Positions 13,198-64,000 of a DNA stretch of 64,000 nt are shown here, one piece after another (position 1 is the first letter of the stretch; every line of letters begins with the position of its first letter). The notes below the pieces were generated by a model. That model was not told the origin of the DNA. It worked only from the letters and a program-made list of their open reading frames with translations, and made no database searches. Source of the DNA: Heptranchias perlo. Taxonomy: Eukaryota. Both the position numbers and the translations under genes were made by a program. The stretch spans positions 62,001-126,000 of the forward strand of contig NW_027139436.1 of the NCBI RefSeq assembly GCF_035084215.1. Direction: 5' to 3'.

Positions 13198-13545
13198 GTG
13201 ATAATAACCGTCGGCCACTGGGTGTCGGTTGCAACAGCACCAGATGTCTGCTTCTGTATCTCTCCCACTCTCGCTCTCCCTCCTGTTGCTTCTCTCACTC
13301 TAATTCTCTCTCTGTCTGTGGGTATCGTTAAATTTTATGAAATAAAGTAAAATTTGAGATTAAAAAAAACCGAACCTCATTCATTCTGAACCTTGAGAAT
13401 TGGGTCCAGTTCTGGTCAGACTGCATCTTGAGGACTGGGTCCAGTTCCTGGTCAGACTGCACCTTGAGGACTGGTCCAGTTCTGGTCAGACTGCACCTTG
13501 AGGACTGGTCCAGTCTGGTCAGACTGTGCCTTGAGGACTGGGAGA
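13195..13545 (+). repeat. Composite module (Tx1-type tail plus ggtccagttctggtcagactgcaccttgagga repeats); copies at 14155-14380 (+) and about 63110-63300 (-)
   Basis: Closely similar sequence is readable at the three positions. Confidence 0.75.
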
Positions 13546-14115
13546 ACGAGACAGTGGGATGAGTTTGGGATTGATACAGGACGATGGGGAGAGAGTGGGG
13601 CAGTGGGATTAGTGTGAGATTGATACAGGTCTATGGAAGAGAGTGGGGCAGTGGGATTAGTGTGAGATTGATACAGGACTATGGGGAGAGAGTGGGGGAG
13701 TGGGATTAGTGTGAGATTGATACAGGGACTATGGGGAGAGGGTGGGGCAGTGATTGATGCAGGACTATCGGGAGAGAGTGGGGCAGTTGGATTAGTTTGG
13801 GATTGACACAGGACTATGGGGAGTGTGGGGCAGTGGGATTAATGTGAGATTGATGCAGGACGATGGAGAGGGAATGGGGCATTGGGATGAGTTTGGGATT
13901 GATACAGGACTATGGGGAGAGAGTGGGGCAGAGGGATTCGTGTGAGATTAATACAGGGCAATGAGGAGAGAGCGTGCAGTGGGATTAGTGTGAGATTGAT
14001 ACAGGACTATGGGAAGAGAGTGGGCAGTGGGATTAGTGTGAGATTGATACAGGACTATGGGGAGAGAGTGGGGCAGTGGGAATAGTGTGAGATTGATACA
14101 GGACTATGCGGAGAG
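13545..14115. repeat. 49-bp minisatellite A (GAGTGGGGCAGTGGGATTAGTGTGAGATTGATACAGGACTATGGGGAGA)n
   Basis: Tandem units, with a reverse-complement array at 63585-64000. Confidence 0.9.
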
Positions 14116-14384
14116 AGAGTTTAGCAGAAACCACACCAAAGACAGCTGGTTCCTTGTGATAATAACCGTCGGCCACTGGGTGTCGGTGTAACAGCACCAG
14201 ATGTCTGCTTCTGTATCTCTCTCACTCTCGCTCTCTCTCCTGCTACCTCTCTCACTCTAATTCACTCTCTGTCTGTGGGTATCCTTAAAGTTTATGAAAT
14301 AAAGTAAAATTTCAGCTAAAAAAAACAAATCTCATTCATTCTGCACCTTGAGGACTGGGTCCAGTTCTGGTCAGACTCCAAATG

Positions 14385-14995
14385 TGTTTATGTTGAGTTC
14401 CCTCACTCTGTGTATTCCCACACTGTAACTGTGTTTATGTACAGTTCCCTCACTCTGTGTATTCCCACACTGTAACTGTGTTTATGTACAGTTCCCTCAC
14501 TCTGTGTATTCCCACACTGTAACTGTGTTCATGTACAGTTCCCTCACTCTGTGTATTCCCACACTGTAACTGTGTTTATGTACAGTTCCCTCACTCTGTG
14601 TATTCCCACACTGTAACTGTGTTTATGTACAGTTCCCTCACTCTGTGTATTCCCACACTGTAACTGTGTTTATGTACAGTTCCCTCACTCTGTGTATTCC
14701 CACACTGTAACTGTGTTTATCTACAGTTCCCTCACTCTGTGTATTCCCACACTGTAACTGTGTTTATGTACAGTTCCCTCACTCTGTGTATTCCCACACT
14801 GTAACTGTGTTTATGTACAGTTCCCTCACTCTGTGTATTCCCACACTGTAACTGTGTTTATGTACAGTTCCCTCACTCTGTGTATTCCCACACTGTAACT
14901 GTGTTTATGTACAGTTCCCTCACTCTGTGTATTCCCACACTGTAACTGTGTTCATGTCCAGTTCCCTTACTCTGTGTATTCCCACACTGTAACGG
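14385..14995 (-). repeat. 47-bp minisatellite B, about 13 units, each with a 12-RSS-like motif on the minus strand
   Basis: Unit ACAGTTCCCTCACTCTGTGTATTCCCACACTGTAACTGTGTTTATGT, with a reverse-complement array at 61730-62895. Confidence 0.95.
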
Positions 14996-15004
14996 CGTTT
15001 ATTT

Positions 15005-19048: not shown

Positions 19049-19429
19049 TGGGGCCGACAGAATAAGCCCTCAGTTGGGCTCAGGCCCATGGGTACAGAGC
19101 CCAGTGTTGGTCAGGGTCACGGCTGGTGACCTGAGTCTATCTGAACCCTCTTTGATTTCCCCGTCCCAGCCCAGAAGCGTTGACCCAAATTCCCATCACC
19201 CCCAGTCACCAGCGGTGCTGAATCGAGGCCCTGGGGACAGGAGAAAAGGGGAAAGGTTCAAGGTGCCAGAGGTGGTGAAGGGTTCCACACTGCACTGTTA
19301 GTCTGGCCCTCGGGTGATGGCTGGAATCTCAGAGTCACATCATAAGATGTGGGGAGAAATTGAAGGTCAAACCGTGGGCATTATGGGATGTCTGTGCTGC
19401 TGCTCATTTGATAGTCAAAGGCTGGTTAC

Positions 19430-19572
19430 CTTGATAACGGTGACGAAGGTGCTGTAGAGGAAACTTAGAATGAAGAGGATGGCGAAGGCAGCGACTGTTA
19501 ACACATTGTCGTCTCCATCCCAATCTCCTGCTTCTTCCTTCCCTTCCTCTCCTGCCTCGTCTGGAGGGAATT
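19430..19572 (-). CDS. IgW: IgW TM1 exon (acidic spacer plus transmembrane helix)
   Basis: Acceptor ttcctttcag; peptide (E)FPPDEAGEEGKEEAGDWDGDDNVLTVAAFAILFILSFLYSTFVTVIK with the Ig CART motif; donor AAG/GTAACC. Absent from the ORF track. Confidence 0.95.
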
Positions 19573-19699
19573 CTGAAAGGAATGAGAAATTGGGGCTGTT
19601 AGAGTTTCCTGTGGATGTTTCATAACCATCGACAATATCTCAATAGTTTGGAGATAACACAGTGAGGGGGGAGTGGCACTGGGAGCAGAGAATCATTAG

Positions 19700-20055
19700 A
19701 GAGTCTCCCTCTCTCTCTCTCTCGCTCTCTGTCTCTCTCGCTCTCTCTGTCTCTTTCTCTACCTCTCTTTCTCTTTCTCACTCTCACTCTGTCTCTCTCT
19801 CTCTCTTTCTCTGTCTCTCTCTCTCTCTATCTTTCTCTCTCTTTTCCTCTCTCTCGCTCTCTCTTTCTCTGTCTCGCTCTATCTCTCTCTCTGTGTTTCA
19901 GTGTGTCTCTCTGTATCTCTCTTTGACTCTCTCTCTCTCTTTGTCTCCCTCTCTCTGTCTCGATCTCTCTGTCTCACTCTTCATCCCTCCCTCTCTCTCT
20001 GTCTCTGACTCTCTCTCTTTCTGTCTGCTTCTTTCTCTGTGTTCCAGTGTGTCTC
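19700..20055. repeat. (CT)n-rich microsatellite followed by an assembly gap (20056-20314)
   Basis: Direct inspection. Confidence 0.9.
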
Positions 20056-20314
20056 NNNNNNNNNNNNNNNNNNNNNNNNNNNNNNNNNNNNNNNNNNNNN
20101 NNNNNNNNNNNNNNNNNNNNNNNNNNNNNNNNNNNNNNNNNNNNNNNNNNNNNNNNNNNNNNNNNNNNNNNNNNNNNNNNNNNNNNNNNNNNNNNNNNNN
20201 NNNNNNNNNNNNNNNNNNNNNNNNNNNNNNNNNNNNNNNNNNNNNNNNNNNNNNNNNNNNNNNNNNNNNNNNNNNNNNNNNNNNNNNNNNNNNNNNNNNN
20301 NNNNNNNNNNNNNN

Positions 20315-20660
20315 GCGCCTTTCAAGAGCTCAGGACATCCCAAGGTGCTTTCCAGCCAATGAAGTACTTTCGAAGTGTAGTCACTGTTGTAATGTAGGAA
20401 ACATGGCAGCCATTTTGTGCACTGCAAGATCCCACAAACAGCAATGTGATAATGAGCAGATAATCTGTTTTTTGGTTGAGGGATAAATATTGGCCCAGGA
20501 CACCGGGGAGAACTTCCCTGCTCTTCTTCAAAATAGTGACCGTGGGATCTTTTCGGTCCACCTGAGAGGGGCAGACGGGGGCCTCGGTTTAACATCTCAT
20601 GCGAAAGACGGCACCTCCGACAGTGCGGCACTCCCTCAGTACTGCACTGGAGTGTCAGCG
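20315..20660 (-). mobile_element. Deu-domain SINE (SacSINE1-like)
   Basis: Reverse complement of the core ggagtgc.gcactgtcggaggtgccgtctttcg...gttaaaccgaggcccc. Confidence 0.85.
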
Positions 20661-21132
20661 GAACTTGTAAATCGGAAGGAGTCACCAGGTTCAGCATTGA
20701 GCAGCTCCGCTCAATGAGACAATCTCTTGTGATTGGTGATGTGAGGGAGTGAGGGGCTGAATGGGATGGGAAAGCCTGTGATTCACGGCTCACTGGGATG
20801 GAATAAGGGGGAAGTGATCCAGTGAGGGTCAGTGGGCAAATGTGAAGGGGTCTTCCAGCCTCATTGATCCAGGGCCCTCTGTCATTGTGAGCCCATTAAC
20901 TCTACTTTCCCACAGGATCGTTTCATTCTCAAGAGTTACGGCCCAGCTGAGATTTACTTTGGGTGCTGACAGACAGACGTTTAACTGGACCATTGGTCCA
21001 GAAAAGTCACCAATGCCCAGACACGCCTCTCCTGTTATTCAGCCTCACACATCCACACCTGGTCGAGCAGCACTGGGGTGCCTGAGCACGGGGACCCCTC
21101 AAACAGGGACCCCCACCCCACCACCTAACACG

Positions 21133-21476
21133 GGTGCCAGCTGTGGCTCAGTGGGTAGCACGCTCGTCTCTGAGTCCGAAGGTTGGGGGTTCCAGTCCCA
21201 CTCCAAGGACTTGAGTCCATAATCCAGGCCGACACTCCCCGGTGCCAGTACCGAGGGAGTGCTGCACTGTCGGAGGTGCCGTCTTTGGGGTGAGACGTTA
21301 AACAGAGGCCCCTCAGGTGGATGTAAAATATCCCACGGCCACTATTGGAAGAAGAGCAGGGGAGTTCTCCCCGGTGTCCTGGGCCAATATTTATCCCTCA
21401 ACCAACATCACTAAAATACAGATGATCTGGTCATTATCACATTGCTGTTTGTGGGAACTCGCTGGGTGCAAATTGG
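21133..21476 (+). mobile_element. Deu-domain SINE with a tRNA-derived head
   Basis: A-box tggctcagtggg, B-box-like ggttccagtcc, and the Deu core. Confidence 0.85.
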
Positions 21477-21478
21477 AG

Positions 21479-21746
21479 TTGGTGGGCCGAGAAAGACCAA
21501 AGGCCGTCTGGTTCCCCTTCTCCCACCCTGGTCGCTGTGTGATACGATGATAATGGAGTTGTTGACTAATCAGAGCAATCGATCTCCATCAATTAGTCTC
21601 CAACAGACCCAGACATGAGGTGAGGAAAACCCCCAGTGGTGGAGAGCTTTGGGGAGCCATTGGTCCAAAGTCACCTGTTCCTCCCGAGCCCTGTTCCACT
21701 TCCCGCACCTCATGTCCCCAAATTACTCGGAGACTCTCTCCCCAAA
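21479..21746. repeat. 268-bp dispersed repeat, copy 1 (CH6-TM1 intron)
   Basis: About 4 mismatches against 33692-33959, with the same orientation and end points. Confidence 0.9.
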
Positions 21747-22135
21747 CAACACCCACAATGAAGACCCGGAAATCCAAACCTTTTCCCATCTCCTTTATTG
21801 ATATTGGATTGGTACATTGACATTTTACAACAGGCATTTAACCCTTCGTGAGGGTCTCACACAGGTTTCAAACTCAGTCAAACGAGGCACAAAAAAGGTT
21901 TTCAGGAGGGAGTCCAGACCTTGTGAGACTTGGAGCCAATAATGTTTGTGTCCTGATTCGATCATTTCGATATTTTTCTCAATTACTGAACAAGGTCTGA
22001 TTTTGATGACGTTTTAAGTGTTCTGTTACCAAAAGGGAGATTTGATAGTGAGCACAAGACCCCCCCTGGTGGGGTTAACGGTACATTTACAGGGATTATT
22101 TTCTATCTGAAGGTCACTCATTGAATCATTCGATG

Positions 22136-22521
22136 TTAGAAACAGGATTTCAAGCTATCGGCTAGAACAAGTGAGATGTTCACCAGGGTGGGTTTGCTGT
22201 GAGATTTATTGATGCTTCTGAACAGATTGGTTGTGAGCGACTCGTGTCCCACCACACAGGAGAAAGTGGTGCTGCTGTTCCACTCCTCTGCGGGGACCGT
22301 CAACCGGCTGCCCGCCGAGTTCCAGCCCCTTCCGCCGTCCTCGGTCACCGGCTGGTTCACGAAGCCCGACTTCAGAAGGGTGTCGTTGGCCATCCAGGCC
22401 ACGTAGATCTCTGCGGGGGAGAATCGGGTGACCAGACACACCAGGGTCGCCGTCTGATCCGTCTCCATCTCGTCCGGTGAAGGGGGGAGGATGTAGACTT
22501 GAGGGCGAGTCTGCGCGTCCA
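22136..22521 (-). CDS. IgW: IgW CH6 exon plus secretory tailpiece
   Basis: C1-set Ig domain (ATLVCLVTRFSP...W...FSCVVGHE) followed by the tailpiece KPTLVNISLVLADSLKSCF-stop with an NIS glycosylation site and penultimate Cys; acceptor tgtttccag. Confidence 0.96.
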
Positions 22522-22839
22522 CTGGAAACAGAGACAACCTTGGTTAGACTGAGTCTTTCACCCATCCTGGATTTACCTGAGACGTTCTACTCTTACACAA
22601 ACCCTGGGCACCTTTTACATCCCCAGAGACCCCCGTCTATCTCGGAAACTAAAGGCATTTCTCCGTTTGTTTATTGTTGGGGGGAGGGAGAGGAGGAATC
22701 TTCAATCTTGCTGATTTTATAACCTCCAGTGAGGTTAGTGTGTCCCGTTTAAACATCTGGAGCCAGTGAACAACTGGAACTCTGCAGAAAGAGAGTCCGA
22801 CTGGTTAAGGGGACGGGCTGCTCTTCCAATGATAGATTT

Positions 22840-23205
22840 AATAGCGGGGTTCGAAATCATGGGGGGTTTTGAGAGAGTAAATCAGGAGAAACTGTTTCCA
22901 GTGACAGGAGGGTCGGGAACCAGAGGACACAGATTGAAGAGAATTGGTGAAAGAACCAGAGGAGGAGATGAGGAGAATTTTTGACGCAGTGAGTTGTTCC
23001 AATCTGGAATTCACTGCCTGAAAGGGCGGTGGGAGGAGATTCAATAATAACTTTCAAAAGGGAATTGGATCAATATTTAAAAAGGAGAAAATTTGCAGGG
23101 CTCTGGGGAAAGAGCGGGGGAGTGGGATTAATTGGATAGTTCTTTCAAAGAGCTGGCACAGGCATGATGGGCCGAGTGGCCTCCTTCTGTGCCGTATGAT
23201 TCTAC
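22840..23205 (+). mobile_element. CR1/HER1-type LINE 3' end
   Basis: FEIMGGFERVNQEKLFPV...TRGHRLK and the typical gatgggccgagtggcctccttctgtgc 3'UTR. Confidence 0.85.
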
Positions 23206-23244
23206 GAGAAACACCAGACATAAATCCATTTCCCACCGTCAGAC

Positions 23245-24290
23245 GGTAATAAATCACTCCCCTGTACTAGACAGCTTCCCCCTAGACAGTAATAAATCAC
23301 TCCCCTGTACTAGACAGCTTCCCCCCAGACAGTAATAAATCACTCCCCTGTACTAGACAGCTTCCCCCTCGACAGTAATAAATCACTCCCCTGTACTGGA
23401 CAGCTTCCCTCGAGACAGTAATAAATCACTCCCCTGTACTAGACAGCTTCCCCCCAGACAGTAATAAATCACTCCCCTGTACTAGACAGCTTCCCCCTCG
23501 ACAGTAATAAATCACTCCCCTGTACTAGACAGCTTCCCCCCAGACAGTAATAAATCACTCCCCTGTACTAGACAGCTTCCCCCTCGACAGTAATAAATCA
23601 CTCCCCTGTACGAGACAGCTTCCCCCTAGACAGTAATAAATCACTCCCCTGTACTAGACAGCTTCCCCCCAGACAGTAATAAATCACTCCCATATACTAG
23701 ACAGCTTCCCCCTAGACAGTAATAAATCACTCCCCTGTACTGGACAGCTTCCCTCGAGACAGTAATAAATCACTCCCCTGTACTAGACAGCTTCCCCCGA
23801 GACAGTAATAAATCACTCCCCTGTACTAGACAGCTTCCCCCGAGACAGTAATAAATCACTCCCCTGTACTAGACAGCTTCCCTCGAGACAGTAATAAATC
23901 ACTCCCCTGTACGAGACAGCTTCCCCCCAGACAGTAATAAATCACTCCCCTGTACTAGACAGCTTCCCCCTCGACAGTAATAAATCACTCCCCTGTACTC
24001 GACAGCTTCCCTCGAGACAGTAATAAATCACTCCCCTGTATTGGACAGCTTCCCTCGAGACAGTAATAAATCACTCCCCTGTACTAGACAGCTTCCCCCG
24101 AGACAGTAATAAATCACTCCCCTGTAATAGACAGCTTCCCTCGAGACAGTAATAAATCACTCCCCTGTACGAGACAGCTTCCCCCCAGACAGTAATAAAT
24201 CACTCCCCTGTACTAGACAGCTTCCCCCTCGACAGTAATAAATCACTCCCCTGTGCTAGACAGCTTCCCCCCAGACGGTAATAAATCCCT
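23245..24290. repeat. 43-44-bp minisatellite, about 24 units, in the CH5-CH6 intron
   Basis: Unit GACAGTAATAAATCACTCCCCTGTACTAGACAGCTTCCCCC. Confidence 0.96.
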
Positions 24291-24335
24291 TCATTTGCTG
24301 AGATCAGACTCACACCGAGCTCTGTCCACACCTAC

Positions 24336-24656
24336 CTTGCATCTTCTTGATCGCCCTCTTCTCCGGCGTTGGCAAACTCTCGTCCTCCACCAAACACAAA
24401 TACTCGACCCCACTCTCCCACTCTGCGGCGGGGACCGTCAGTCTGCTGGAGATCCTTTCTTTATCTCCATTCCTCTCGGGCCCCTGAGTCTTCACCCCAT
24501 CTTCTCGCTCCTTTCCGTCCACCTGCCAGGTTACCCTCACCCCCTCTAAATCACCGTGAAGCACCTCACAAATAATGGTTGCCGTCCTGTTCCTCCAGAT
24601 CTCTTCGAAGGAAGGTTTGCTTAAGGTGACTGAGATGCCGGTGTCCAAACATTGAT
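24336..24656 (-). CDS. IgW: IgW CH5 exon
   Basis: (D)QCLDTGISVTLSKPSFEEIWRNRTATIICEV...W...EYLCLV; 321 nt, phase 1/1, AG and GT boundaries. Confidence 0.95.
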
Positions 24657-25019
24657 CTGGGAGAAATATTATCATTATTATTTCATGATTCCCTCATGGG
24701 ATGTGGGCGTCGCTGGCAAGGCCGCCATGTCTTGCTCATCTCCAGAGGTACAACTGAGTGGCTTGCTGGGCCCCTTCAGAGGGCAATTAAGAGTCGACCA
24801 CTTTGGTGTGAGACGGGAGTCACGTGTAGGCCAGACAGGGGAAGGACGGCAGGTTTCCTTCCCCAAAGGGACGTTAATGAACCAGTTGGGTTTTTCCTGG
24901 TTCACGCTCACTTTTACTGAGACCAACTTTTCATTTCCAGTTTTCACTTTTCAAACTGATTTCAAATTCTCCAACTGCCCTGGTGGGAATTGAACTCAGT
25001 TCTGTGGATTATTAACTGT

Positions 25020-25495
25020 AAGTGTCAGCCTTGGCTCAGTGGGTCGGACCCTCGCCTCTGTGGTCAGAAGGTTGTGGGCCCAGAGCCCCACTCCAGAGAC
25101 TTGAGCCCATAACCCAGGCCGACAATCCCCGGTGCCAGTACTGAGGGAGTGCTGCACTGTCGGAGGTGCCGTCTCTCGGCTGAGACATTAAACCCAGGCC
25201 CCGTCCGCCCCTCTCAGGTGGATCGAAAAGATCCCATGGCACTATTTCGAAGAAGAGCTGGGGAGTTCTCCCTGGTGTTCTGGGGCCAATATTTATCCCT
25301 CAACCAACAGCACTAAAACAGATGATCTGGTCATTATCACGTTGCTGTTTGTGGGATCTTGCTGTGCGCAAATTGGCTCCCGCGTTCCCTACATTACAAC
25401 AGTGACTAAAAGAAAGGACTTCATTGGCTGCAAAGCGCTTTGGGACGTCCTGAGGTTGTGAAAGGCGCTACATAAATGCAAGTGTTTCTTTCTTT
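25020..25495 (+). mobile_element. Full-length Deu-domain SINE
   Basis: tRNA-like head, Deu core, and 3' tail ending in aaatgcaagtgtttctttctttctt. Confidence 0.88.
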
Positions 25496-25646
25496 CTTAG
25501 CCCAGGCCTCTGGATTACTAGTCCCGTCACATTAACCACTACGTTCCCATATCTATGGCGTCAGTGTTGAACTTGTCTGGCCCGAGTAGAGTTTATAGCA
25601 GTGGGGACAAAGGATGTCAATATTGGAGTCAGGCCCAGGACCTTAC

Positions 25647-25964
25647 CTTGAACGTCCTTCACCTCCTGGCTGGTGGTGGAGTTGGTGGGTGGATGAGACA
25701 CTGTACAGGTGAAGACTGAGCCTTTCTTCCACTCCTCTGTACTCACGGTCAGGTAGTGCCTGGCGCTGAAAGTCCTCGCCTGTTCCAGGGCGGTGGGTGC
25801 AGCGCTGGTGTTGGAGGAGATCGGGGAGCCGTCTTTCTCCCAGGAGACGTGTATGAGGTCCGGGTAGAATCCCGTGATCATACACTCGAGTGTGGCCGTG
25901 TTCTTACTCTTGGTCTCTTGGGCTGGTGGAGGCAGCAGTCTGACCGTGGGACTCTTGGGCTCGA
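25647..25964 (-). CDS. IgW: IgW CH4 exon
   Basis: (V)EPKSPTVRLLPPPAQETKSKNTATLECMITGFYPDLIHVSW...FTCTVSHP; 318 nt, phase 1/1. Confidence 0.95.
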
Positions 25965-26054
25965 CTGGAACAGACGGGCAAACAAAGAAAGTGTTAAACT
26001 CTTTCCCCTCAAGGTTATCAAAGGCAGGCCTTTAATTTCTGATCTCTTGCCCAC

Positions 26055-26357
26055 CTTTTGCACTTCTTGTCCGTTTGGACACGGGCGAGGATGAGGAAGG
26101 ACCTTGGGCAGAGCACACGTACTCTACCCCACTGGCCCACTCCATCGCGCTGGTTCGGAGTCGGCTGACGACCGTGCGTTGGGAACCTTCCTCTCTCGGC
26201 CCCTGGGTCACAATCCCTTCACTTCTCTCCTTCCCGTTCACCTCCCAGGAGATCTGGACCTGGCTCGGATCGGCACAGACCACCTCGCACACCAGGGTAG
26301 CAGTGTTGTTGATCCAAACCTCTTCAATAGAAGGATTTCGGATAAAGACAGACATTC
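26055..26357 (-). CDS. IgW: IgW CH3 exon
   Basis: (G)MSVFIRNPSIEEVWINNTATLVCEV...W...EYVCSA; 303 nt, phase 1/1. Confidence 0.95.
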
Positions 26358-26939
26358 CTGGGAATGAGAAAGGGGAAACCTTCAGAAGAATGGACAATAT
26401 CTGGTGTCAAGGGGCTTCAGAATTTTAGGAGAGCCTTTTCTATTGGTGATCAGTGATGGAAGGTCAAGACAGAAGTGACTGTAAACAGTTTTAACCTGAG
26501 TCCTTTTTAACCTGTAATATCTTGGGCTGTTATTGGATCAAACTGGACTGGAGCTAAATTTGTAGCAAATCGAACATTAGCAAATCCCAGGGTTGTTTAA
26601 AATATATCTTGCATTTCTTGGTTTGCATGTTTTGACCGAGAAAACAGAATCAAAGCATCAAGAACTGTCGGGATGCGATTTTAATGCGTTTCCCGTAACC
26701 GTGCCCACTGGATCCACAATGGGGACTGCGATTGAGTTGCGGGGCTGAGCGACATTTAGTTCCAGTGATGTTAATAAAATGCAATCTCAGGTTTGTGGGA
26801 TGGAGCGAGAGAGAGATGCAGACTGGTTAGCAAAAGAAACAATTGGATAAAAGCTTGTTTGCTCAGACACCTGGTGTGAGCTGTGGATTGATTTGTGACA
26901 CTGAGCACACTGAGTCAATGAGGACCCCTCTTCTCCACT

Positions 26940-27360
26940 CGGAGTGAGCCCCGGGATTGCCTCGATTTTAAAATTCTTTCCTCCTGTTCCAATCCCCCCT
27001 CCATGGCCTCGCCCCCCGCCTCCCGATCTCTGTGACATTCTCCAGCCCTACAACCCTCCGAGATCTCTGCCTTCCTCCAACTCTGGGCTTTTGTACATGG
27101 CCCACTCCCTCCGCCCCACTATTGGCGGCCGTGCCTTCAGCCGTCTGGGCCCTAATCTCTGGAATTCCCTCCCTAAACCTCAATGATTTGCCTCCTCTCT
27201 CTCGTCCTTTAAGACCCTCCTTAAAACCTGCCCCTTTGACCTGTCCTAATATCTCCTTCTTTGGCTCAATGTCAATTTCTGTCTGATTACGCTCCTGTGA
27301 AGCCCCTTGGGACGTTTTGCTCCATTAAAGGCGCTATATAAATGCAGGGTGTTGTTGTTC
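26940..27360 (+). mobile_element. L2-type LINE 3' end
   Basis: YNPPRSLPSSNSGLL...GGRAFSRLGPNLWNSLP and the tail ggcgctatataaatgc. Confidence 0.8.
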
Positions 27361-27778
27361 ATGACTCCCTGTCAAGGAAGAACGTTAGTTTGTAACGGCA
27401 GAGCAACCCATGAATCAGAGGAGGTGACAGAAGGTCCCCCCTCTTGCTACTGGTTGGGGATCTTTTCTCCATAACCTGTACTTCCTCCCCGTTTCATGTC
27501 CCTGAGTCATTGGACGAGGAAGAGGAGGATTTATCGAATTCTTCACCCATTATCTCCATTGTCACTCGTCTCCCAAAGGACCAACCTCACGTCAGAGATC
27601 CCACAGCTCTCCGTGTGTTCAGTGCACGATTAACACACACACTCACTGTGCAAATCACAACTAAGCTGTCTGCTTTGGTCCACAGCAGCTGTTCTACCGT
27701 GATATAATGTGAAGTTAACACTTGGGGAGGGACGACTATCTTTGTGTCAGGATCAAAACCTTTAATGAACATCTCGAA

Positions 27779-27828
27779 TCAATTGCTCCGTCTGCAGTTG
27801 GAGCCGATGTTCAGCAGACCGTGTCTGC
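27779..27828 (-). CDS. Candidate second interspersed IgW secretory exon (G)RHGLLNIGSNCRRSN-stop
   Basis: Acceptor cggtcctctcag in phase 1, compatible with CH2; one Cys; ATTAAA 13 nt after the stop (27761-27766). Confidence 0.4.
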
Positions 27829-27939
27829 CTGAGAGGACCGTGTCTTTTATTAAATTAAGATGTTATCTCCCCCTTCTGTTTGAACAAAATGGTCAGCAAC
27901 TTCCTTCCAAAATTTGGGATTGGTCACATTAAAGCTTCT

Positions 27940-28320
27940 CACCGTATCCAGTCAATGATTTGTAAACTTAGGTTTAATATACACCGTTTATAGTCAATGA
28001 TTTGTGAACTTTGGTTTAATATACACCGTTTATAGTCAATGATTTGTAAACTTTGGTTTAATATACACCGTTTATAGTCAATGATTTGTAAACTTTGGTT
28101 TAATATACACCGTTTATCGTCAATGATTTGTAAACTTTGGTTTAATATACACCGTTTACAGTCAATGATTTGTGAACTTTGGTTTAATATACACCGTTTA
28201 CAGTCAATGATTTGTGAACTTTGGTTTAATATACACCGTTTATAGTCAATGATTTGTAAACTTTGGTTTAATATACACCGTTTACAGTCAATGATTTGTA
28301 AATTTACATTTAATCTACAC
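27940..28320. repeat. 42-bp AT-rich minisatellite, about 9 units
   Basis: Unit GTCAATGATTTGTAAACTTTGGTTTAATATACACCGTTTATA. Confidence 0.93.
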
Positions 28321-28684
28321 TCTGCTGACATTAATTATTGCAGTTTTTGTAAGGTGCTCAGCCCAGCCCTACATTGGTGACCGAGTCTCGAGGTTTAACA
28401 GTCCCTGGTGATGGGTGGTCTCCCATCATAAAACCTCACAGGGTCGGGTGAATTCCCCTTATTATTGTAAAATGCTGATATTGAGTGACAGGAGGTTAAT
28501 TCTGTTTACCCCGTGCGGGGGGGGGGGGGAATTAAAAAGAAACACTTTCCCCCCTCTCTCCGCATCTCCGACAAAGATGCTGGCTCTCCGATGCACTTTC
28601 ATCCCCACGGACACCCTGGGCAGGATTTGAACCCCCCAAACGGGTTTGTAATGAAATCCAACGGCCAATTCAATTCACAACCAA

Positions 28685-28815
28685 TCATTTTATTGTGCAC
28701 ATTTGATGGCGACATTGATATTCGCGCTCGGTCCCATCGGCGAGCATCATATTAAGCTGAGTCTGTTGGATGAATCTCGGCATACACCCAGAACAAGAAC
28801 AAGTGGAGTTCCCAC
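28685..28815 (-). CDS. IgW: IgW-short Cys-rich secretory tail exon, spliced after CH2
   Basis: Strong acceptor ctcttccatttccag, phase 1. Peptide (G)GNSTCSCSGCMPRFIQQTQLNMMLADGTEREYQCRHQMCTIK-stop has 5 Cys, and AATAAA overlaps the last codons. Absent from the ORF track. Confidence 0.88.
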
Positions 28816-29398
28816 CTGGAAATGGAAGAGTTGCAGATTTAAGTGTTAAACATTCTCATCTCCCCCTCCCCTGTGCTGGGAAAGTGGGAGCTCCACACGG
28901 GCCCCTGAACTCTGCTCCGTCCTGAGTTTTTCGGCTGCGAAAGGCTCTCGATCATGGAGACCACGACAAGCTGTTTCACCGTGTCCAGAACAGGAGAACC
29001 AGAGGACACGGCCTGCGCTCGAAGTGGGGGGAGCGGGAGGGCGCGGGGAGGGTCAATTGGGAACCAATATTTCAGTGAGTGAGTGGTCAATCTATGGAAC
29101 AGGCTCCCGAGGGAGACGGTGGGAGCGGAGAGTAAAATCGGGCAAGGGGGTAAATCGGGGAGAGGGGGGGGTCGACCCAATCCAGGCAGTTTCCCCGCCC
29201 CGTGCGTCAGGTTAAATTTACCCCCTTTTAAATGTGGGTTCAATATCAAAACACACAAGACTGAAAATCTCGCCTCTCCCAACGAGGTGGATATTAGGGC
29301 CAGTGGTTAACAGATTGAAGGCCAGGGGTCAGCGCATTAAGTTAATATAAGGTGGAATTCCCCACAGGACGTCCTTTTCCCCCTCAGACACCACTTAC

Positions 29399-29704
29399 CC
29401 CCTCGATACCACATGCTGATCCTCCCATTGAAGTTCGAAGGTGCGTGGGTCACTTCACAAGTGTAGACATCCCTTTCGGTCCATTCCACCGTCGGCACCG
29501 TCAGGAAAGTGACCGTTTCGAAGTCACCGTCTTTTCTCGTGTTTGAAGGGAGAACAACAGCCTCTTGCTGCACTCCGGCTTTCCTCCAGGAAACCTTCAC
29601 AGCGTCGGGATAGAATTCCGATATTACACAGCCCAGGACAGCAGTGGTTTGATTGTAGACAACCTCCAGGGATGGAACAAGGGAGATGAGCTTTGGAGCT
29701 TGAG
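29399..29704 (-). CDS. IgW: IgW CH2 exon
   Basis: (P)QAPKLISLVPSLEVVYNQTTAVLGCVISEFYPDAVKVSW...YTCEVTHAPS; 306 nt, phase 1/1. Confidence 0.95.
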
Positions 29705-30049
29705 CTGGAAGACATTGGAATATTTCAGATGAGGAGATTGTTTTGGCCACAGTGAAGGTGGACTCCATTCCCCAAGTTCGAACCCCGTCATCCTCTCCCC
29801 TCGATACTCAGTCCCATTGACTTTAATGGAACTGATTATCGGGCGTGTCGTATAACGGGCGGCAAATGCGATCCCGCCGATTTTGCGTTCCCCGCCCGTG
29901 TCCAATCTCACGTGATTTCTCGTTGTCCTTTATTTCATTCCCATCAGCACCGCTGGCCGACAGGGATAGAATATATGGGCACGAGAATTCAGGCAGGTTC
30001 TATCGTGCAACGACCTGTGACATTGGTTGGGGGGAAATTACGTGGAGAG

Positions 30050-30470
30050 ACCGGAGAAACTGGGGTTGTTCTCCTTGGAGCAGAGAAGGTCAAGGGGAGA
30101 TTTGAGAGAGGTGTTCAAAATCATGAAGGGTTCGGATAAAGTAAATAAAGAGAAAACTGTTCCCATCGGCGGGAGGGTCGGTAACCAGAGGACGCAGATT
30201 TAAGGTGATCGGCAAAAGAACCAAAGGGGACGTGGGGAAAATCTTTTTGAGGCAGCGAGTGGTTCTGATCTGGAATGCGCTGCCTGACGGAGAAGGTGGA
30301 TTTAATCGTGGCTTTCAAAAAGGAACTGGATAAATACTTGAAGGGAAAAAATTAGCAGGGCTCCGGGGAAAGAGCGGGGGAGAGTGGGACTAACTGGATC
30401 GCTCTTACAAAGAGCTGGCACGGGCTCGACGGGCCGAATGGCCTCCTTCTGTGATGTAACCGATCTGTGA
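30050..30470 (+). mobile_element. CR1/HER1-type LINE 3' end
   Basis: Contains ttgttctccttggagcagagaagg...gtgttcaaaatcatgaaggg and the CR1 3'UTR. Confidence 0.85.
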
Positions 30471-30543
30471 TTCGAAGTTTCCTTGTCCAATTTCACCCCG
30501 ACACCAGTGAAGTTTTAAATGGTAAATAATATCTTGTACTCAC

Positions 30544-30870
30544 GTTTCGGTTCAGGTTTTTTGGGGATGATCTGAGCTTCCACCATCTCGTCCGACTTGA
30601 ATCCCGCCTTGCAAGCGTAGAAGCTTTTGGTTTTCCAATCTGAGGCAGAGACTTTGAGCACAACGCTCATTGTGTACTTCATGTTTTGCCCCAAGGCTGC
30701 CGGATATTTCTTGATTCCGGTGGAGATGTCTCCACTGTCAGTGGACCATATCTGACTGATGCTCTCGGGCCGAAAGTCCTTGACCAGACACAGGAGGCTG
30801 ATCTCATCTTGGTCGGAGCTCGTGCCGCAGTAAGGGTTGGCGATGTAGACGGAGGGTGCGGACTGGACAT
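30544..30870 (-). CDS. IgW: IgW CH1 exon
   Basis: (D)VQSAPSVYIANPYCGTSSDQDEISLLCLVKDFRPE...W...FYACKAG. The extra N-terminal Cys is typical of light-chain linkage; 327 nt, phase 1/1. Confidence 0.95.
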
Positions 30871-31869
30871 CTGAAAGGTAAATAGGTGCAGACGGATAAG
30901 TCCAGTCAACAAATACATTACAGGCGTCCGCAGCAGGAGGGATTTTGTTCTGTATAAAACCAGCCATTTCCGAAAACGATTACACTGCTACGCAAGGGGC
31001 TTATGTTTTGAAGTCTTGAGCGCATAATCTAGGCCGACACTCCATTCCACCGCTGAGGGAGTGCTGCACTGTCGGAGGTGCCGTCTTTCGGGTGAGACGT
31101 TAAACCGAGGCCCTGTCTGCCCTCCCGAAACCAATTCATGTTTCCCATATAACTGTTAGCACCAGATGACAGGAGTTTACAGAAATGGAAGGATTTGGCA
31201 CCAAGTTATTCGAATAACGGAGACTTGTTTTGGGGTGACATTGATCGGGAGATTGAAATCCCAGAGAGTCTCACACAAGTGACAGGCATAACCTGGTGGG
31301 AATGGTAATCTGGGTAAGAGGGCAAATAGGACCCGTAGAGATACATTGTGGAAGAGGTTACGAGTTCAAATCCCACCACGGCAAGTTGGGAAATCAAGGC
31401 CATTCAATCTGGCGATTTCTGGGCTGGCACCAGATAAAATGACCTGGTCAAAAAAACCCAACTGGTTCATTAAAGTTCTTGAGGGAAGGGAATCTGCCGC
31501 CCCTCCCTGGTCTGGGCCTACACGTGACTCCAGTCCCACACACCACATGGCTGACTCTTAATCCCCCCTCAGGGCAACTAGAGGTGGGAAATAAATGGCG
31601 GCCACACTGGCCGAAGGAATTAGAAAGAAAATGTGAGCTGAGGTGGTGGAGGTGCAACGAGATGAGGTCAAGGACAGGAAAGCAAGAAGGCAATTAATGG
31701 CTGTTGTTACTGAACTCAGACACAAGGCGAAGATTGGAAGGGCAATAGTTTGACCGGACAGAGAGATGTGAACAATGACACAATGTTCATCACAGAACGT
31801 TCAATTCCCCAGATTTTGACCGGGGATCTTGCTGGAAAACTAAGGAGCAAGTGTGGAGATTGGGCAGGA

Positions 31870-52339: not shown

Positions 52340-52795
52340 TCTCAGCCTGGGCTCAGTGGGGATCACTCTCACCTCTGAGTCACAAGGTCGTGGGTTCAAG
52401 GCCCACTCCAGAGACTTGAGGCCCTAATCTCGGCTGACACTTCGGTGCAGTGCTGAGGGAGTGCTGCACTGCCGGAGGTGCCGTCTTTCGGATGGGACGT
52501 TAAACCGAGGCCCTGTCTGCCCCTCTCCGGTGGATAGAAAAGATCCCACGGCCACTATTGGAAGAAGAGCAGGGGAGTTCTCCCAGGTGTCCTGGGCCAA
52601 TATTTATCCCTGAACCAATATCATTAAAATAGATTATCTGACCATTTTATCTCATTGCTGTTTGTGGGATCTTGCTGTGCATAACATGGCGGCCGCGTTT
52701 CCGACATTACAACAGTGATTACACTTCAAAAAATAATTAATTGTCTGTAAATCACTTGGGTCCTGAGGTTGTGAAAGGCACTGTATGAATGGAAG
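52340..52795 (+). mobile_element. Deu-domain SINE
   Basis: tRNA-like head, Deu core and tail. Confidence 0.85.
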
Positions 52796-52957
52796 TTACT
52801 GCCAGTTACAGGAAGAGGAGGGGAACTTGAGATCGATTTGTAAACTCACGGGGAAAGGGCGGGGGAATGGGACCAACTGGATTGGTCTTACAAAGAGCCA
52901 GCATGGGCTGGATGGGCAGAATGGCCTCCTTCTGTGCTGTAATCATTCGATGATTCG

Positions 52958-54974: not shown

Positions 54975-55410
54975 CCTTTCACAAACCTCAGGACCTCCCA
55001 AAGAGCTTTACAGACAATTCAGGATTTTCTGAAGTGCAGTCACTGTTGTAATGTAGGAAAGGCGGGAGCCAATTTGCGCACAGCAAGATCCCACAAACAG
55101 CAATGAGATAAAATGACCAGATAATTTGTTATTTAATGATGTTGGTTGAGGGATAAATATTGGCCCTGGACACCGGGGAGAACTTCCCAGCTCTTCTTCG
55201 AAATGGTCCCATGGGATCTTTTACACCCTCCTGAGAGGGCAGGCGGGGCCTCGGTTTAACGTCTCACCCGAAGGACGGCACCTCCGACAGTGCAGCTCTC
55301 CCTCAGTGAGTGTCAGCTGGGATTATGGGCTCAAGTCTCTGGAATGGGGTTTGAACCCACGACCTTTCTGACTCAGAGGCGAGAGTGATCCCCACTGAGC
55401 CCAGGCTCAG
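54975..55410 (-). mobile_element. Deu-domain SINE
   Basis: Reverse complement of the family at 52340-52795. Confidence 0.85.
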
Positions 55411-55764
55411 GAGATCCAGGCGCAGAAGACATGAGTGTGGGGTGGGGATCACAAGGGGGAGATCACTGTTCCATCCCCGGGTCTCACTGTGGGACGAGTC
55501 GATCCAGGGCAGCGGGAATCAACTGCCTTAATATTAAGATTCCCAGACTGCTTAACGGGAGTGGAGACCCTGAACCTGAGATGGGATCGATGTCAGACTC
55601 GAATTGGAACCCAGGATATGTGATCGAGGTGTTCAAAATGATCAAATGAACAGGCAAGGTCACCGTCAATAGACTGTTTCCATTGGCAGGACGACATGTC
55701 CCAATAATGGCATCTAGTGTAGGAGTGAAACACCGTCAGGAACACCATCAGATGTCGGAATAAC

Positions 55765-56312
55765 ACACCCGCACTAAACACCATCGAAAGTATTAGTACT
55801 ACACCTGCAGCAGTAACAGCACCAGGTGTACGTGTATCACACCCACACTAGTAACACCATGTGAAGTATTAGTACTATACCTGCAGCAGTAACAGCACCA
55901 GGTGTCCGTGTATCACACCCACACTAGTAACACCATGTGAAGTATTAGTACTATACCTGCAGCAGTAACAGCACCAGGTGTCCGTGTATCACACCCACAC
56001 TGGTAACACCATGTGAAGTATTAGTACTATACCTGCAGCAGTAACAGCACCAGGTGTCCGTGTATCACACCCACACTAGTAACACCATGTGAAGTATTAG
56101 TACTATACCTGCAGCAGTAACAGCACCAGGTGTCCGTGTATCACACCCACACCAGCAACACCATGTGAAGTATTAGTACTATACCTGCAGCAGTAACAGC
56201 ACCAGGTGTCCGTGTATCACACCCACACTAGTAACACCATGTGAAGTATTAGTACTATACCTGCAGCAGTAACAGCACCAGGTGTCCGTGTATCACACCC
56301 ACACTAGTAACA
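55765..56312. repeat. 76-bp tandem repeat, about 7 units
   Basis: Unit GTGAAGTATTAGTACTATACCTGCAGCAGTAACAGCACCAGGTGTCCGTGTATCACACCCACACTAGTAACACCAT. Confidence 0.94.
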
Positions 56313-58009
56313 CTGTATAAAGGAGGGGAGTTGATCTCATTCCCTGTGACGGGCTCTGATCCGAGATCCCCTCACTTGACCTGGGCCACATTCAGCGAAA
56401 TGTTATTCTAATCGAAATGGATGAAGAGAAACGATGGCCGTACTCACTGAGCCTGAGATTTGATTCCCTGCTGCTGCTGCTCCCCGATACCGGGCACCTC
56501 TCGGCCTGCACCATTGCCTCAACATGTGGAGCCAATGACTTGGGCCTGAGGCCTGTCTTGGGTAAAAACCCCAGGGCCACTTGTCACCACACAACTCTGG
56601 GCCCAAACCACTGACCTGCTTCTCATCTTTTTCTCAGCTCTTTCTTTCTTTCTCAGCCTTCCTGTTTCTGCTCCTTTTTATTTAATGAGGGGGTGGGGTG
56701 GGACGGGGGAGGGGGTGAAGAGGGGCCTCTCCCCCTCAAACCCCCTCTGCTTTTCCCCTCCTCCCTTTTTCTGATGGATTGAGGTGATTTTAAAGGGTGT
56801 TTAACTGCGGGGCGGAGGAGCCCGAGTGAGTGAAGGTGAGTGAAGGACGTGCTTCGCGAGCTCGGCCTTCAAACCCCAACAGGAAAAGCNNNNNNNNNNN
56901 NNNNNNNNNNNNNNNNNNNNNNNNNNNNNNNNNNNNNNNNNNNNNNNNNNNNNNNNNNNNNNNNNNNNNNNNNNNNNNNNNNNNNNNNNNNNNNNNNNNN
57001 NNNNNNNNNNNNNNNNNNNNNNNNNNNNNNNNNNNNNNNNNNNNNNNNNNNNNNNNNNNNNNNNNNNNNNNNNNNNNNNNNNNNNNNNNNNNNNNNNNAG
57101 GGAGAGGAGGGGGGAGGTTTGTCCCGAACTCAACAGCGGGCGGGGCTCTTTGGTGGGGAGTGGGAAACACCTCAGAGCCCCGGGAAAGAGCGGCTTCAGA
57201 AAGTTCCAATGATTCAAATTCATGTGTGAAGGTTTCGGGAGTGCGGCCAGAATAATGTCCAGTATTAGTCCAATCCCAGCAGCAGTCTGTCTGTCTATCT
57301 ATTTATCTCTCTATCTCGATATCTATCTCACACTCTTCTGTCTATCTCCATCTCTTTCTCTCGATGTAACACCATCAGATGTCTGAATAACACACCCACA
57401 CTAGTAACACCATCTATAGTATTGGTCCTATATCTCCAGCAGTCTATCTATCCCCCACTCTGTCTATCTCCATCTCTCTCTCTATATATATTGATATATA
57501 TATTTATAAAATCTCTCTCTCCGGATACTTGAATCATTTTGTGGAACGTTCCCCATTCCAGTCTCACAGTTTCTCCTCCAGTCTCTGTTCCTGATTTCCA
57601 GAGCTGTACAGGGGGCTCAGAACCAGGAGGGGCTCCGTTAGATTTTACTGACCGGCCCCCGAACACAGCTCAGTGGGTTTGCTCACAGAACCGGTCTGCT
57701 GCTCCGTTGGAGATAAACAGCAGAAGAGCCTGTTTGGACCGAGGCCTTATCAGCAACACGCAGCGACACACACCCAGAACTAAACTCACCCCGTCAGCAA
57801 TGATTGATGGAAACCGCACTCAGTGTTTGCTGACTGGGCCGGGTCCACATCCAGCAAATTGTTTCTGAGCTGAAAGTGTTCCCCAGCCTTGGATGCCCCT
57901 CCCCTGTGTTTCCCATCCTGTTGCCTCCTTCACTGTTTACCCCACACCTCAGTCAGGCCGTGTTGGGAAGTCTTGCCCAGAACAACCCAAGGCTGCCCCG
58001 AGCTCGACT

Positions 58010-58790
58010 GACCAGCGAGTGATTCATTTTGGTCGGAAGAGTGAGGAGAGGCAACATTAACTAAATGGTCCAATTTTAAAGGGGGTGCAGGAACAGAGAG
58101 ACCTGGGGGGGGGTGTGTACACAAATCTTTGAAGGTGGCAGGACAAGTTGAGAAGGCTGTTAAAAAGACAGACGGGATCCTGGGCTTTATAACTCAAGGC
58201 ATAGAGAACAAAAGCAAGGGAGTTATGCTGAACCTTTATAAAACACTGGTTAGGGCCCCAGCTGGAGTATTGTGACCAATTCTGGGCACCGCACTTTAGG
58301 AAGGATGTCAAGGCCTTGGAGAGGGTGCAGAGGAGATTTACTAGAATGGTTCCAGGGATGAGGGGCTTCAGTGATGTGGAGAGACTGGAGAAACTGGGGT
58401 TGTTCTCCTGAGAGCAGAGAAGGTTAAGGGGAGATTTGATCGAGGTGTTCAAAATCATGAAGGGTTTTAATAGAGTAAATAAGGTAACCAGAGGACACAG
58501 ATTTACGGTAATCGGTAAAAGAACCAGAGGGGGAGATGAGGAAACATTTTTTTACGCAGCGAGTTGTGATGATCTGGAATTCACGGCCTGAAAGGGCGGT
58601 GGAAGCAGATTCAATAATAACTTTCAAAAGGGAATTGGATAAATACTTGAAGGGGGAAAATTTGCAGGGCTACGGGGGAAAGAGCAGGGGGAGTGGGACT
58701 GATTGGATCGCTCGTCCAAAGAGCCAGCACAGGCACGATGGTCCGAATGGCCTCTCCCAGTGCTGTATCATTCTCTGATTCTATGATGTG
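58010..58790 (+). mobile_element. CR1/HER1-type LINE 3' fragment
   Basis: Contains caggaacagagagacctggg...ctttataaaacactggttagg, the peptide FFTQRVVMIWNS, and the CR1 3'UTR. Confidence 0.9.
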
Positions 58791-58799
58791 GTTTAAGGA

Positions 58800-59075
58800 G
58801 TGTGTGTGGAACAGTTCAATGACCGTCCGTTCCCAAGTGTGTTTCCCAAGGGTTCCATTCTGATCTCTCCAGTCGTAGCCAGAGAATCACCTGCAATGGC
58901 GTCTCTTCCCACCCCCACACCGTTACCTCTGGAGTCCCCCAAGGATCTACCCTTGGCCCCCTCCCATTTCTCATCTACATGCTGCCCCTCGGTGATATCA
59001 TCCGAAGACATGACATCAGGTTCCACATGTACACTGACGATACCCAGCTCCACCTCACCACCACCTCTCGACTCC
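58800..59075 (+). mobile_element. L2-type LINE RT fragment
   Basis: ggagtcccccaaggatct (GVPQGS) and ttccacatgtacactgacgatacccagctc (FHMYTDDTQL). Confidence 0.8.
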
Positions 59076-61636: not shown

Positions 61637-61729
61637 CGGATAAGAAATTGGGTTATTGTGCAGCAAATTTTACTCTTCACAGTGTGAGGGTGTTGGTCAG
61701 TTTATCAAAATAACGGACCGGAGAATTCA

Positions 61730-62895
61730 ACATAAACACAGTTACAGTGTGGGAATACACAGAGTGAGGGAACTGTACATAAACACAGTTACAGTGTGGG
61801 AATACACAGAGTGAGGGAACTGTACATAAACACAGTTACAGTGTGGGAATACACAGAGTGAGGGAACTGTACATTAACACAGTTACAGTGTGGGAATACA
61901 CAGAGTGAGGGAATTGTACATAAACACAGTTACAGTGTGGGAATACACAGAGTGAGGGAACTGTACATAAACACAGTTACAGTGTGGGAATACACAGAGT
62001 GAGGGAACTGTACATAAACACAGTTACAGTGTGGGAATACACAGAGTGAGGGAATTGTACATAAACACAGTTACAGTGTGGGAATAAACAGAGTGAGGGA
62101 ATTGTACATAAACACAGTTACAGTGTGGGAATACACAGAGTGAGGGAATTGTACATAAACACAGTTACAGTGTGGGAATAAACAGAGTGAGGGAACTGTA
62201 CATAAACACAGTTACAGTGTGGGAATACACAGAGTGAGGGAATTGTACATAAACACAGTTACAGTGTGGGAATAAACAGAGTGAGGGAATTGTACATAAA
62301 CACAGTTACAGTGTGGGAATACACAGAGTGAGGGAATTGTACATAAACACAGTTACAGTGTGGGAATAAACAGAGTGAGGGAACTGTACATAAACACAGT
62401 TACAGTGTGGGAATACACAGAGTGAGGGAATTGTACATAAACACAGTTACAGTGTGGGAATAAACAGAGTGAGGGAACTGTACATAAACACAGTTACAGT
62501 GTGGGAATACACAGAGTGAGGGAACTGTACATAAACACAGTTACAGTGTGGGAATACACAGAGTGAGGGAACTGTACATAAACACAGTTACAGTGTGGGA
62601 ATACACAGAGTGAGGGAACTGTTCATAAACACAGTTACAGTGTGGGAATACACAGAGTGAGGGAACTGTACATAAACACAGTTACAGTGTGGGAATACAC
62701 AGAGTGAGGGAACTGTTCATAAACACAGTTACAGTGTGGGAATACACAGAGTGAGGGAACTGTACATAAACACAGTTACAGTGTGGGAATACACAGAGTG
62801 AGGGAACTGTACATAAACACAGTTGCAGTGTGGGAATACACAGAGTGAGGGAACTGTTCATAAACACAGTTACAGTGTGGGACTGTACACAGAGT
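61730..62895 (+). repeat. 47-bp minisatellite B, about 25 units, 12-RSS-like motif on the plus strand
   Basis: Unit CACAGAG-TGAGGGAACTGT-ACATAAACA-CAGTTACAGTGTGGGAATA. Confidence 0.95.
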
Positions 62896-63584
62896 GAGGG
62901 AATTTAATACAAAGTCATTTCCTGTCCCTTTCCTATCTTGTATCCCTCTCCAAGGTCTCCTCTCAGACACTTCACATCCACTCTCAGAAGCCCAAGTCTC
63001 TCCAGTCTTTCCTCATTACTCAGACCCGCCCCTGATACTGGGGAGCTGCCTCGAGACTCTTCTCTGTGCTGCCTCCAGCAGTCGATTGTCTCCCTGGTAT
63101 CTCGGTGACCAGAAATTGACCCAGTCCTCAAGGTGCAGTCTGACCAGAACTGGACCCAGTCCTCAAGGTGCAGTCTGACCAGAACTGGACCCAGTCCTCA
63201 AGTTGTAGAATGAATGAGGTTTGATTTTTTATTCTCAAATTTTACATTATTTCTGAAAATTTACGGATACAGAGAGAGAGAGAGGGAGAGAATTCGAGTG
63301 AGAGAGAGAGGCAGCAGGAGAGAGAGAGCGAGAGTGAGTGAGAGCGAGAAGCAGACAGTGAGGACGACAGAGTGAAAAAGACTAGAGAGTGAGAAAGACA
63401 GAGGGAGTGAGAGAGAGAGAGAATGAACGAGACAGAGTGAGAGAGACAGAGAGAGTGAGAGAGACAGAGGGAGTGAGAGATTTTATTTATAAAATCCCCT
63501 TCACATCCTCGAGGTGTCGGAAATCTCCTCACTGTCAATGAGCAACTAACTGTTTCACCGAATCCCGGCCCTTTCTCTGTCTGT

Positions 63585-64000
63585 CCCACACTAATCCCAC
63601 TGCCCCACCTGCTCCCCATAGCCCCGTATCAATCCGGAGCTAATCCCACTGCCCCACCCTCTCCCCAGAGCCCTGTGTCAATCTCACACTAATCCCACTG
63701 CCCCACTCTCTCCCCATACTCCTGTATCAATCTCACACTAATCCCACTGCCCCACTCTCTCCCCATACTCCTGTATCAATCTCACACTAATCCCACTGCC
63801 CCACTCTCTCCCCATACTCCTGTATCAATCTCACACTAATCCCACTGCCCCACCTGCTCCCCATAGCCCCGTATCAATCCGGAGCTAATCCCACTGCCCC
63901 ACCCTCTCCCCAGAGCCCTGTGTCAATCTCACACTAATCCCACTGCCCCACTCTCTCCCCATAGTCCTGTATCAATCTCACACTAATCCCACTGCCCCAC
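63585..64000. repeat. 49-bp minisatellite A in reverse orientation, running off the window
   Basis: Reverse complement of 13545-14115. Confidence 0.9.

Follow-up and report, generated by a model that had tools for sequence, protein, structure and literature searches.

The window, i.e. the whole stretch of 64,000 nucleotides analysed here, contains one intact Ig heavy-chain cluster on the minus strand, bracketed by two arrays of a 47-bp minisatellite, referred to as arrays A and B (Table 1). The signals of the cluster follow each other in the order V-23, 12-D1-23, 12-D2-12 and 23-J, and all six of these real RSSs have a T at heptamer position 6. The C-domain exons start near 30871, 29705, 26352, 25962, 24642 and 22516; the last C domain matched IgH constant domains in PDB with a best E-value of 5e-38. 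The layout, one V-D-D-J-C cluster with six C exons, agrees with the long IgW form of cartilaginous fish (PMC5192425), and the assignment as IgW-type is due to this six-C-domain layout, not to a named match. The nonamers of the J and V 23-RSSs are far from the consensus (GCAGTAACT, 5/9, and GCAAGAACT, 6/9) and flank open segments. An array of a 38-bp unit (222 copies, 8.5 kb, 42723-51177) begins upstream of V, some 550 bp from the leader, and its start occupies the place expected for the V upstream promoter elements. Four assembly gaps are present (9059-9225, 20056-20314, 36220-36800 and 56890-57098); the J-C intron has one of them and the stretch from array A to V another, which makes distances across the gaps approximate.

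Table 1 Features of the Ig heavy-chain cluster, the two 47-bp arrays and their flanks (positions in the window)
Feature	Position	Strand	Remarks
Leader, V exon and V 23-RSS	41661..42166	-	V-set E 8e-14, open frame; leader and V exon 42166-41700; 23-RSS starts 41699
D1	40426..40508	-	5' 12-RSS CACTGTG (40481), 3' 23-RSS CACAGTG (40464)
D2	40033..40100	-	Two 12-RSSs, CACAGTG (40073) and CACAGTA (40060)
J segment with 23-RSS	39604..39692	-	CACTGTG (39654), nonamer 5/9
C region	19420..30871	-	Six open C-domain exons, secretory tail, transmembrane exon (near 19510)
Left flank of array A	61637..61729	+	Diverged match in organisms C and D; contiguous with array start in C
Array A, 47-bp minisatellite	61730..62902	+	TRF: 24.9 copies, 97 % matches
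Decayed LINE remnant adjoining array A	62905..63110	-	Aligns to 37880-38480 (score 76) and 58200-58800 (score 103)
Shared block on the side of array A	63106..64000	+	35-bp repeat, retroposon 3' tip, GA-rich tract, 49-bp repeat
Counterpart block on the side of array B	13245..14380	-	Two 35-mer/retroposon-tip junctions around a 49-bp array
Array B, inverted copy of the array A minisatellite	14383..15002	-	TRF: 13.2 copies; 13 units, all with CAC

Cut at the heptamer, array A yields 24 full units (61758-62885). As noted in the preliminary description, the 47-bp unit reads CACAGAG, 12 nt and a nonamer-like sequence, and some units have lost the CAC. The heptamer was CACAGAG in 19 of the 24 units and AACAGAG in the other 5, the spacer had 12 nt in every unit, and the nonamer was ACATAAACA in 20 units, TCATAAACA in three and ACATTAACA in one. 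The complete form CACAGAG-12-ACATAAACA, with 6/7 heptamer and 7/9 nonamer positions of the consensus, was present in 15/24 units. The nonamer count of 7/9 equals that of the genuine signals, as had been stated: the three real 12-RSS nonamers of the cluster also score 7/9. The five units lacking the CAC lie in a 94-bp alternating stretch (62040-62510). The final unit of array A is a 49-nt form; its heptamer is also CACAGAG, as is that of the terminal unit of array B. Head-to-tail arrangement at a period of 47, copy numbers of 24.9 and 13.2, 97 % matches and the 94-bp alternation are the properties of a minisatellite. Five registers of the unit start with CAC, and a single one of them has a nonamer above 3/9. 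This register has the A5-A6-A7 of the nonamer and the 12-nt spacer of a functional 12-RSS, and heptamer positions 1-3 are CAC in 19/24 units of array A and 13/13 of array B, 32 copies in total. A D segment consists of a short coding part flanked by two RSSs, a structure not found in the unit. Nine types of variants were observed across 35 units, eight in the 28-nt RSS-like part and one in the 19-nt linker; the 16 positions of heptamer and nonamer hold five of the nine types, small numbers on the whole, the nonamer being affected at positions 1, 2 and 5. The change that destroys the CAC has spread to five units. With the reservation of small numbers, this pattern is not the one expected under selection for a signal.

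Array B, overlooked in the preliminary description, lies about 4.4 kb past the transmembrane exon; 10 of its 13 units have the nonamer ACATAAACA. The two arrays are 96-97 % identical, compared with 81-87 % for the inverted blocks that flank them (63106..64000 and 13245-14380), and the heptamers of both point inward, toward the IgW-type cluster between them. The inverted symmetry is explained by the duplication of a block of decayed LINE pieces and minisatellites. The LINE remnant next to array A (presumably CR1, judged from its translated motifs) is less well preserved than the copies at 37880-38480 and 58200-58800. A derivation of the unit from this remnant was considered and found unsupported, as the alignment enters the last unit by just about 15 nt. 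The CACAGTG at 61678 was examined as the 23-RSS of a V-like end, and this reading was rejected: the spacer has 22 nt, the nonamer matches at 6/9, an upstream V frame is lacking, and organisms C and D have CTC instead of CAC at this site.

The surroundings are rich in repeats. Tandem repeats detected by TRF cover 30,010 of the 64,000 bases (47 %) and several families occur twice. The junction of a retroposon 3' end (poly-A) with the LINE-derived 35-bp repeat was found four times, at 8460, 13370, 14340 and 63215, which may reflect either one duplicated block or a target-specific insertion; the copy at 7858-8460 retains several hundred bases of a retroposon frame that we take to be Tx1/L1-like from its motifs. 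Related retroposon 3' ends at 61242 and 51980 have different neighbours. Pfam gave no match for three of the four frames tested (retroposon fragments), and the protein atlas none for the one frame tested. The 35-bp minisatellite (63106-63202 and 13386-13541) can be aligned with the beginning of the LINE remnant and was thus apparently amplified from part of a LINE coding region. Another 47-bp minisatellite, distinct from the studied one (51190-51748), resembles the studied unit over about 30 nt, a hint of a wider family. An 850-bp inverted repeat of 89 % identity (51991-52841 and 54912-55761) surrounds a 21-bp minisatellite. Six units of a 76-bp minisatellite (55764-56313) have a far weaker 23-spacer RSS-like register (5/7 and 6/9), thus looser RSS matches arise in other satellites too.

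By letter count, the RSS match of the unit is rarer than chance. Circular dinucleotide shuffles of the unit (60000) were scored for a CAC together with at least 6/7 and at least 7/9, a cut-off set post hoc at the observed level and weighing all positions alike: 84 shuffles reached it with a spacer of 12, 142 with a spacer of 12 or 23, and 467 when the spacer was allowed to deviate by one. For all 18 minisatellite families together, the expected number of hitting families is between 0.009 (exact spacers) and 0.025 (deviation by one). The studied family was the sole one of the 18 tested with an RSS-like register at 6/7 and 7/9, and, the two arrays and the V-J region aside, the window has no site at this level.

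Such counts of consensus matches are misleading in this case, because the single heptamer mismatch sits at position 6. A functional 12-RSS has a pyrimidine there; the unit has an A in 35/35 full units, the terminal unit of each array being excluded. According to PMC9723617, a pyrimidine is favoured over a purine at this position more than tenfold, and in PMC12205992 a T at heptamer position 6 is the most influential feature. The SARP-seq table of PMC9723617 lists more than 1800 of 4096 possible sequences; CACAGAGTG, the CACAGAG of the unit followed by TG, has a mean of 0.0039 % of the signal joints and stands in row 1668. The starts of the real 12-RSSs of the cluster have values of 1.15 % (CACAGTGCT, D2 5'), 1.09 % (CACTGTGAT, D1 5') and 0.22 % (CACAGTAGT, D2 3') in the same table, i.e. 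58-299 times more. The value for CACAGAGTG is six times below an even share of the 4096 sequences, yet above zero, and its recombination is reproducible in this assay (33, 3 and 81 reads). By arithmetic on these values, the 19 intact units of array A add up to 0.07 %, 15 times below the single 5' RSS of D1. The published assays used core RAG1/2, cultured mammalian cells and spacers other than that of the unit (293T cells and a mouse spacer in the SARP-seq assay, with a nonamer that is likewise not the one of the unit), and shark RAG may differ. ACATAAACA is missing from the top 1000 predicted nonamers in Table S2 of PMC12711392, which include two of the three real 12-RSS nonamers of the cluster and lack the third (TCATAAACC). 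The unit is predicted to be a weak cryptic RAG site, 58-299 times below the real 12-RSS starts of the cluster. The preliminary description had ranked its nonamer as good as the genuine ones; for the signal as a whole, such an equivalence is not supported once the position of the heptamer mismatch is taken into account.

Contigs from four of 19 listed sequencing runs (organisms A-D) were compared with the 170 bases 61637-61806. Organism A is likely the species of the window, a contig continuing with the letters of 62883-62912. Just two of its contigs matched the unit at a likeness of at least 82 %. The depth was 292.6 for the unit and 13 for the end junction of the array, a ratio of 22.5, to be read as depth in filtered records and not as true copy number; it equals the mean of 22.7 copies of each consensus 31-mer in the window. 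Provided that organism A is the species of the window and has the junction as a single copy, the unit is restricted to more or less the two arrays. A uniform genome-wide spread from an unrelated transposon, named in the preliminary description as evidence against an RSS-related array, is thus not what organism A presents; there the unit is apparently local. Organism C had 91 matching contigs with a summed depth up to 269,084 at a flank depth of 113, and organism D 21 contigs with up to 3,626 at a flank depth of 11. In organism C, the bin of the heptamer start reached a summed depth of 15,959, about 6 % of the peak, so most of the amplified relatives end or differ there. The abundance of the family swings about 100-fold between species, as that of satellites does. 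The 49-nt form is present in organisms B, C and D and is likely older than the 47-nt unit. The flank of array A was found in organism C, contiguous with the array start, and in organism D, which indicates an old site; runs X1 and X5 gave no cover of this flank, a gap that proves nothing. None of the 19 listed runs (seven studies), among which no RNA run was recorded, contained half of 28 query words, and a scan of metagenome contigs for an exact 29-nt match gave zero hits.

The loose alignment of the unit with D1 and its heptamers, from which the preliminary description suggested an array amplified from a D segment and its signals, exists as written: its score is 35, and its roughly 35 nt take in two CACAG words as well as the first letters of the spacer. 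It is weak, however, and is matched by other satellites. An origin from a real D segment or RSS, a stray D1-like piece with a shortened 23-spacer, amplified and now neutral, is consistent with several observations. Of 5000 mononucleotide shuffles that kept the heptamer, 11 matched the score; just one of 331 non-repeat tiles compared with the unit scored at least 35, and those of V, D1 and D2 were in the top eight (34, 33 and 33). The spacer start TGAGGGAAC is like those of the D1 and V 23-RSSs, and the unit is seemingly local to the locus in organism A. The score was, on the other hand, matched by 176 of 5000 dinucleotide shuffles (p 0.028-0.035), and depending on the null model the uncorrected p for the homology is 0.002-0.035. 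Eight of 72 satellite-by-segment tests (18 families, 4 segments) gave p below 0.05, six of them from other satellites (6/68), and an unrelated 77-mer outscored the unit on D1 (36, p 0.003). The 49-nt form, known from organisms B, C and D and from the last unit of array A, aligned with D1 more poorly than the 47-nt unit (p 0.12). The likeness to the neighbouring 47-mer (51190-51748) was about equal to that of D1 (25 of 3000 shuffles). Both CACAG words of the D1 alignment, taken for heptamers, stem from how the unit is built, as an internal dimer with the halves ACACAG..AGTGTGGGAA and ACACAG-AGTGAGGGAA (self-alignment score 21, matched by 11 of 1000 shuffles; 24 of 1000 for the 49-nt form). Finally, a CAC is lacking at the 5' site on the required strand. 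The D1 likeness is above average, yet not special, and the D-derived array has to be seen as unlikely.

The geometry of the arrays deserves a separate consideration. Array A (plus strand, 12-spacer) faces the V 23-RSS (minus strand, 41699) at a distance of 20 kb, and array B (minus strand, 12-spacer) the J 23-RSS (plus strand) at 25 kb. In both cases spacer class and orientation permit a deletional pairing, a Kde-like layout as far as geometry goes, and either pairing would leave the signal joint on the chromosome. It had been proposed correctly, as a matter of geometry, that a 12/23 reaction of array A with the V 23-RSS would excise V and its promoter. In a selected device of this kind the arrays would serve as low-efficiency 12-RSS acceptors, RAG deleting V and its promoter through array A or J and all C exons through array B; many weak sites would replace a strong one and the copy number of the minisatellite would set the rate. 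The inward heptamers and deletional orientation on both sides fit a deleting element, as do a match that is rare by letter count and in organism A apparently restricted to this cluster, the probable homogenisation of the arrays beyond their flanks, and the old flank-array junction. We regard such a function as very unlikely: heptamer position 6 is an A throughout, the summed predicted activity falls 15 times short of the D1 RSS, a variant without CAC is spreading, heptamer and nonamer are not spared from change, one duplicated junk block holding both arrays explains the symmetry, and the relative depth differs about 100-fold between organisms. Rearrangement of shark IgH stays inside a minilocus and unused miniloci remain germline in B cells, according to PMC2435157, thus exclusion requires no deleting element; in thymocytes most IgH loci are reported to be partly rearranged (PMC2435157). 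Least probable of all is a decoy or loading site tuning rearrangement, at which RAG1 binds the nonamer-like sites and leaves them uncut: A5-A6-A7 of the nonamer is intact in most units and the V-J region has 37 sites at distances of no more than 25 kb, but nonamer positions 1, 2 and 5 vary and ACATAAACA is outside the top 1000 of PMC12711392, where two of the three real nonamers are inside.

With a probability of about 0.8, arrays A and B are simply two inverted arrays of a 47-bp minisatellite, in which the RSS likeness is a by-product of origin; the unit would be a weak, cryptic site for RAG that has not been selected for any role. This minisatellite reading is supported by the A at heptamer position 6, the unspared heptamer and nonamer, the internal dimer and the ordinary D1 likeness, furthermore by the 47 % of tandem repeat, the abundant relatives in organisms C and D and the unused miniloci remaining germline. 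It is weakened by the rare letter match, the local unit in organism A and the inward heptamers, by arrays more alike than their flanks, by the old flank-array junction, and by the high rank of the V, D1 and D2 tiles and the recombination of CACAGAGTG in the assay. The apparent locality in organism A speaks against dispersal as a satellite and is the strongest argument for the initial interpretation. From the latter, the geometry, the rarity by letters and the non-dispersed occurrence in organism A have been retained, whereas signal quality and descent from D1 have not; the chance resemblance it had offered as an alternative fits best.

The minisatellite may have arisen by the doubling of a short subunit to the 49-nt unit, which would have been shortened to 47 nt in this lineage and expanded through slippage or unequal exchange; the arrays were probably homogenised after the block duplication. 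At a locus accessible to RAG, the predicted partner of the V 23-RSS is the D1 12-RSS at 1.2 kb. It would be preferred over the array sites, which are 20 kb off and each about 280 times weaker. Rare deletions of V or J-C via the arrays may happen as accidents.

Several known systems share single traits with the arrays. Ordinary minisatellites of Ig regions have units of 20-80 bp in 10-200 copies, higher-order alternation and repeated arrays, and 18 such families are present here; from the other families of the window the studied one differs in its RSS-like register. Bird IgH regions are likewise located on minisatellite-rich chromosomes, according to a preprint (bioRxiv 10.64898/2026.09.05.749481). 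On the likely reading, the arrays are one more minisatellite and of little import. In the open literature, as far as it was searched, RSS-like minisatellites have not been found described for the Ig loci of sharks. The D1 of the cluster shares the loose alignment with the unit, but D1 has a 12- and a 23-spacer signal, both intact, while the unit has one 12-spacer site and no 5' signal. RSS-like motifs inverted around a segment are also known from the ends of RAG/Transib elements (ProtoRAG TIRs). Those ends are single, with the heptamers outermost; here 12-spacer tandem arrays with inward heptamers lie on both sides, and no transposase frame was seen.

A closer relative is the cryptic RSS (cRSS), in PMC12711392 a weak off-target substrate outside a gene segment that has, like the unit, a CAC-intact heptamer, a correct spacer and a partial nonamer. 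The difference lies in the arrangement, the site being here the repeat unit of a minisatellite with 32 CAC-intact copies in two arrays that flank one Ig cluster. With these 32 sites of predicted weak RAG activity, which surround an IgW cluster in an orientation for deletion, the off-target action of RAG could be measured in sharks.

Kde/RS, as described in PMC8873125, is an RSS lacking a coding segment and located outside the gene segments, whose joining to a V or an intron signal inactivates the locus. Kde is one signal with demonstrated recombination; the arrays are predicted weak tandem sites known from sequence alone. The products would also be reversed: at Kde the coding joint stays on the chromosome and the signal joint leaves on a circle, whereas with the arrays the signal joint would stay and the circle would carry off the coding joint. 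A deleting element exists at the mammalian TCR delta locus as well. Should joints of the arrays be common, they would be a switch-off for one of many autonomous IgH clusters and bear on the question of one heavy chain per cell in sharks. If the function as a deleting device were true, cartilaginous fish would have made from a minisatellite an equivalent, for the heavy chain, of the kappa-deleting element, and deleting elements would extend beyond the mammalian kappa and TCR delta loci.
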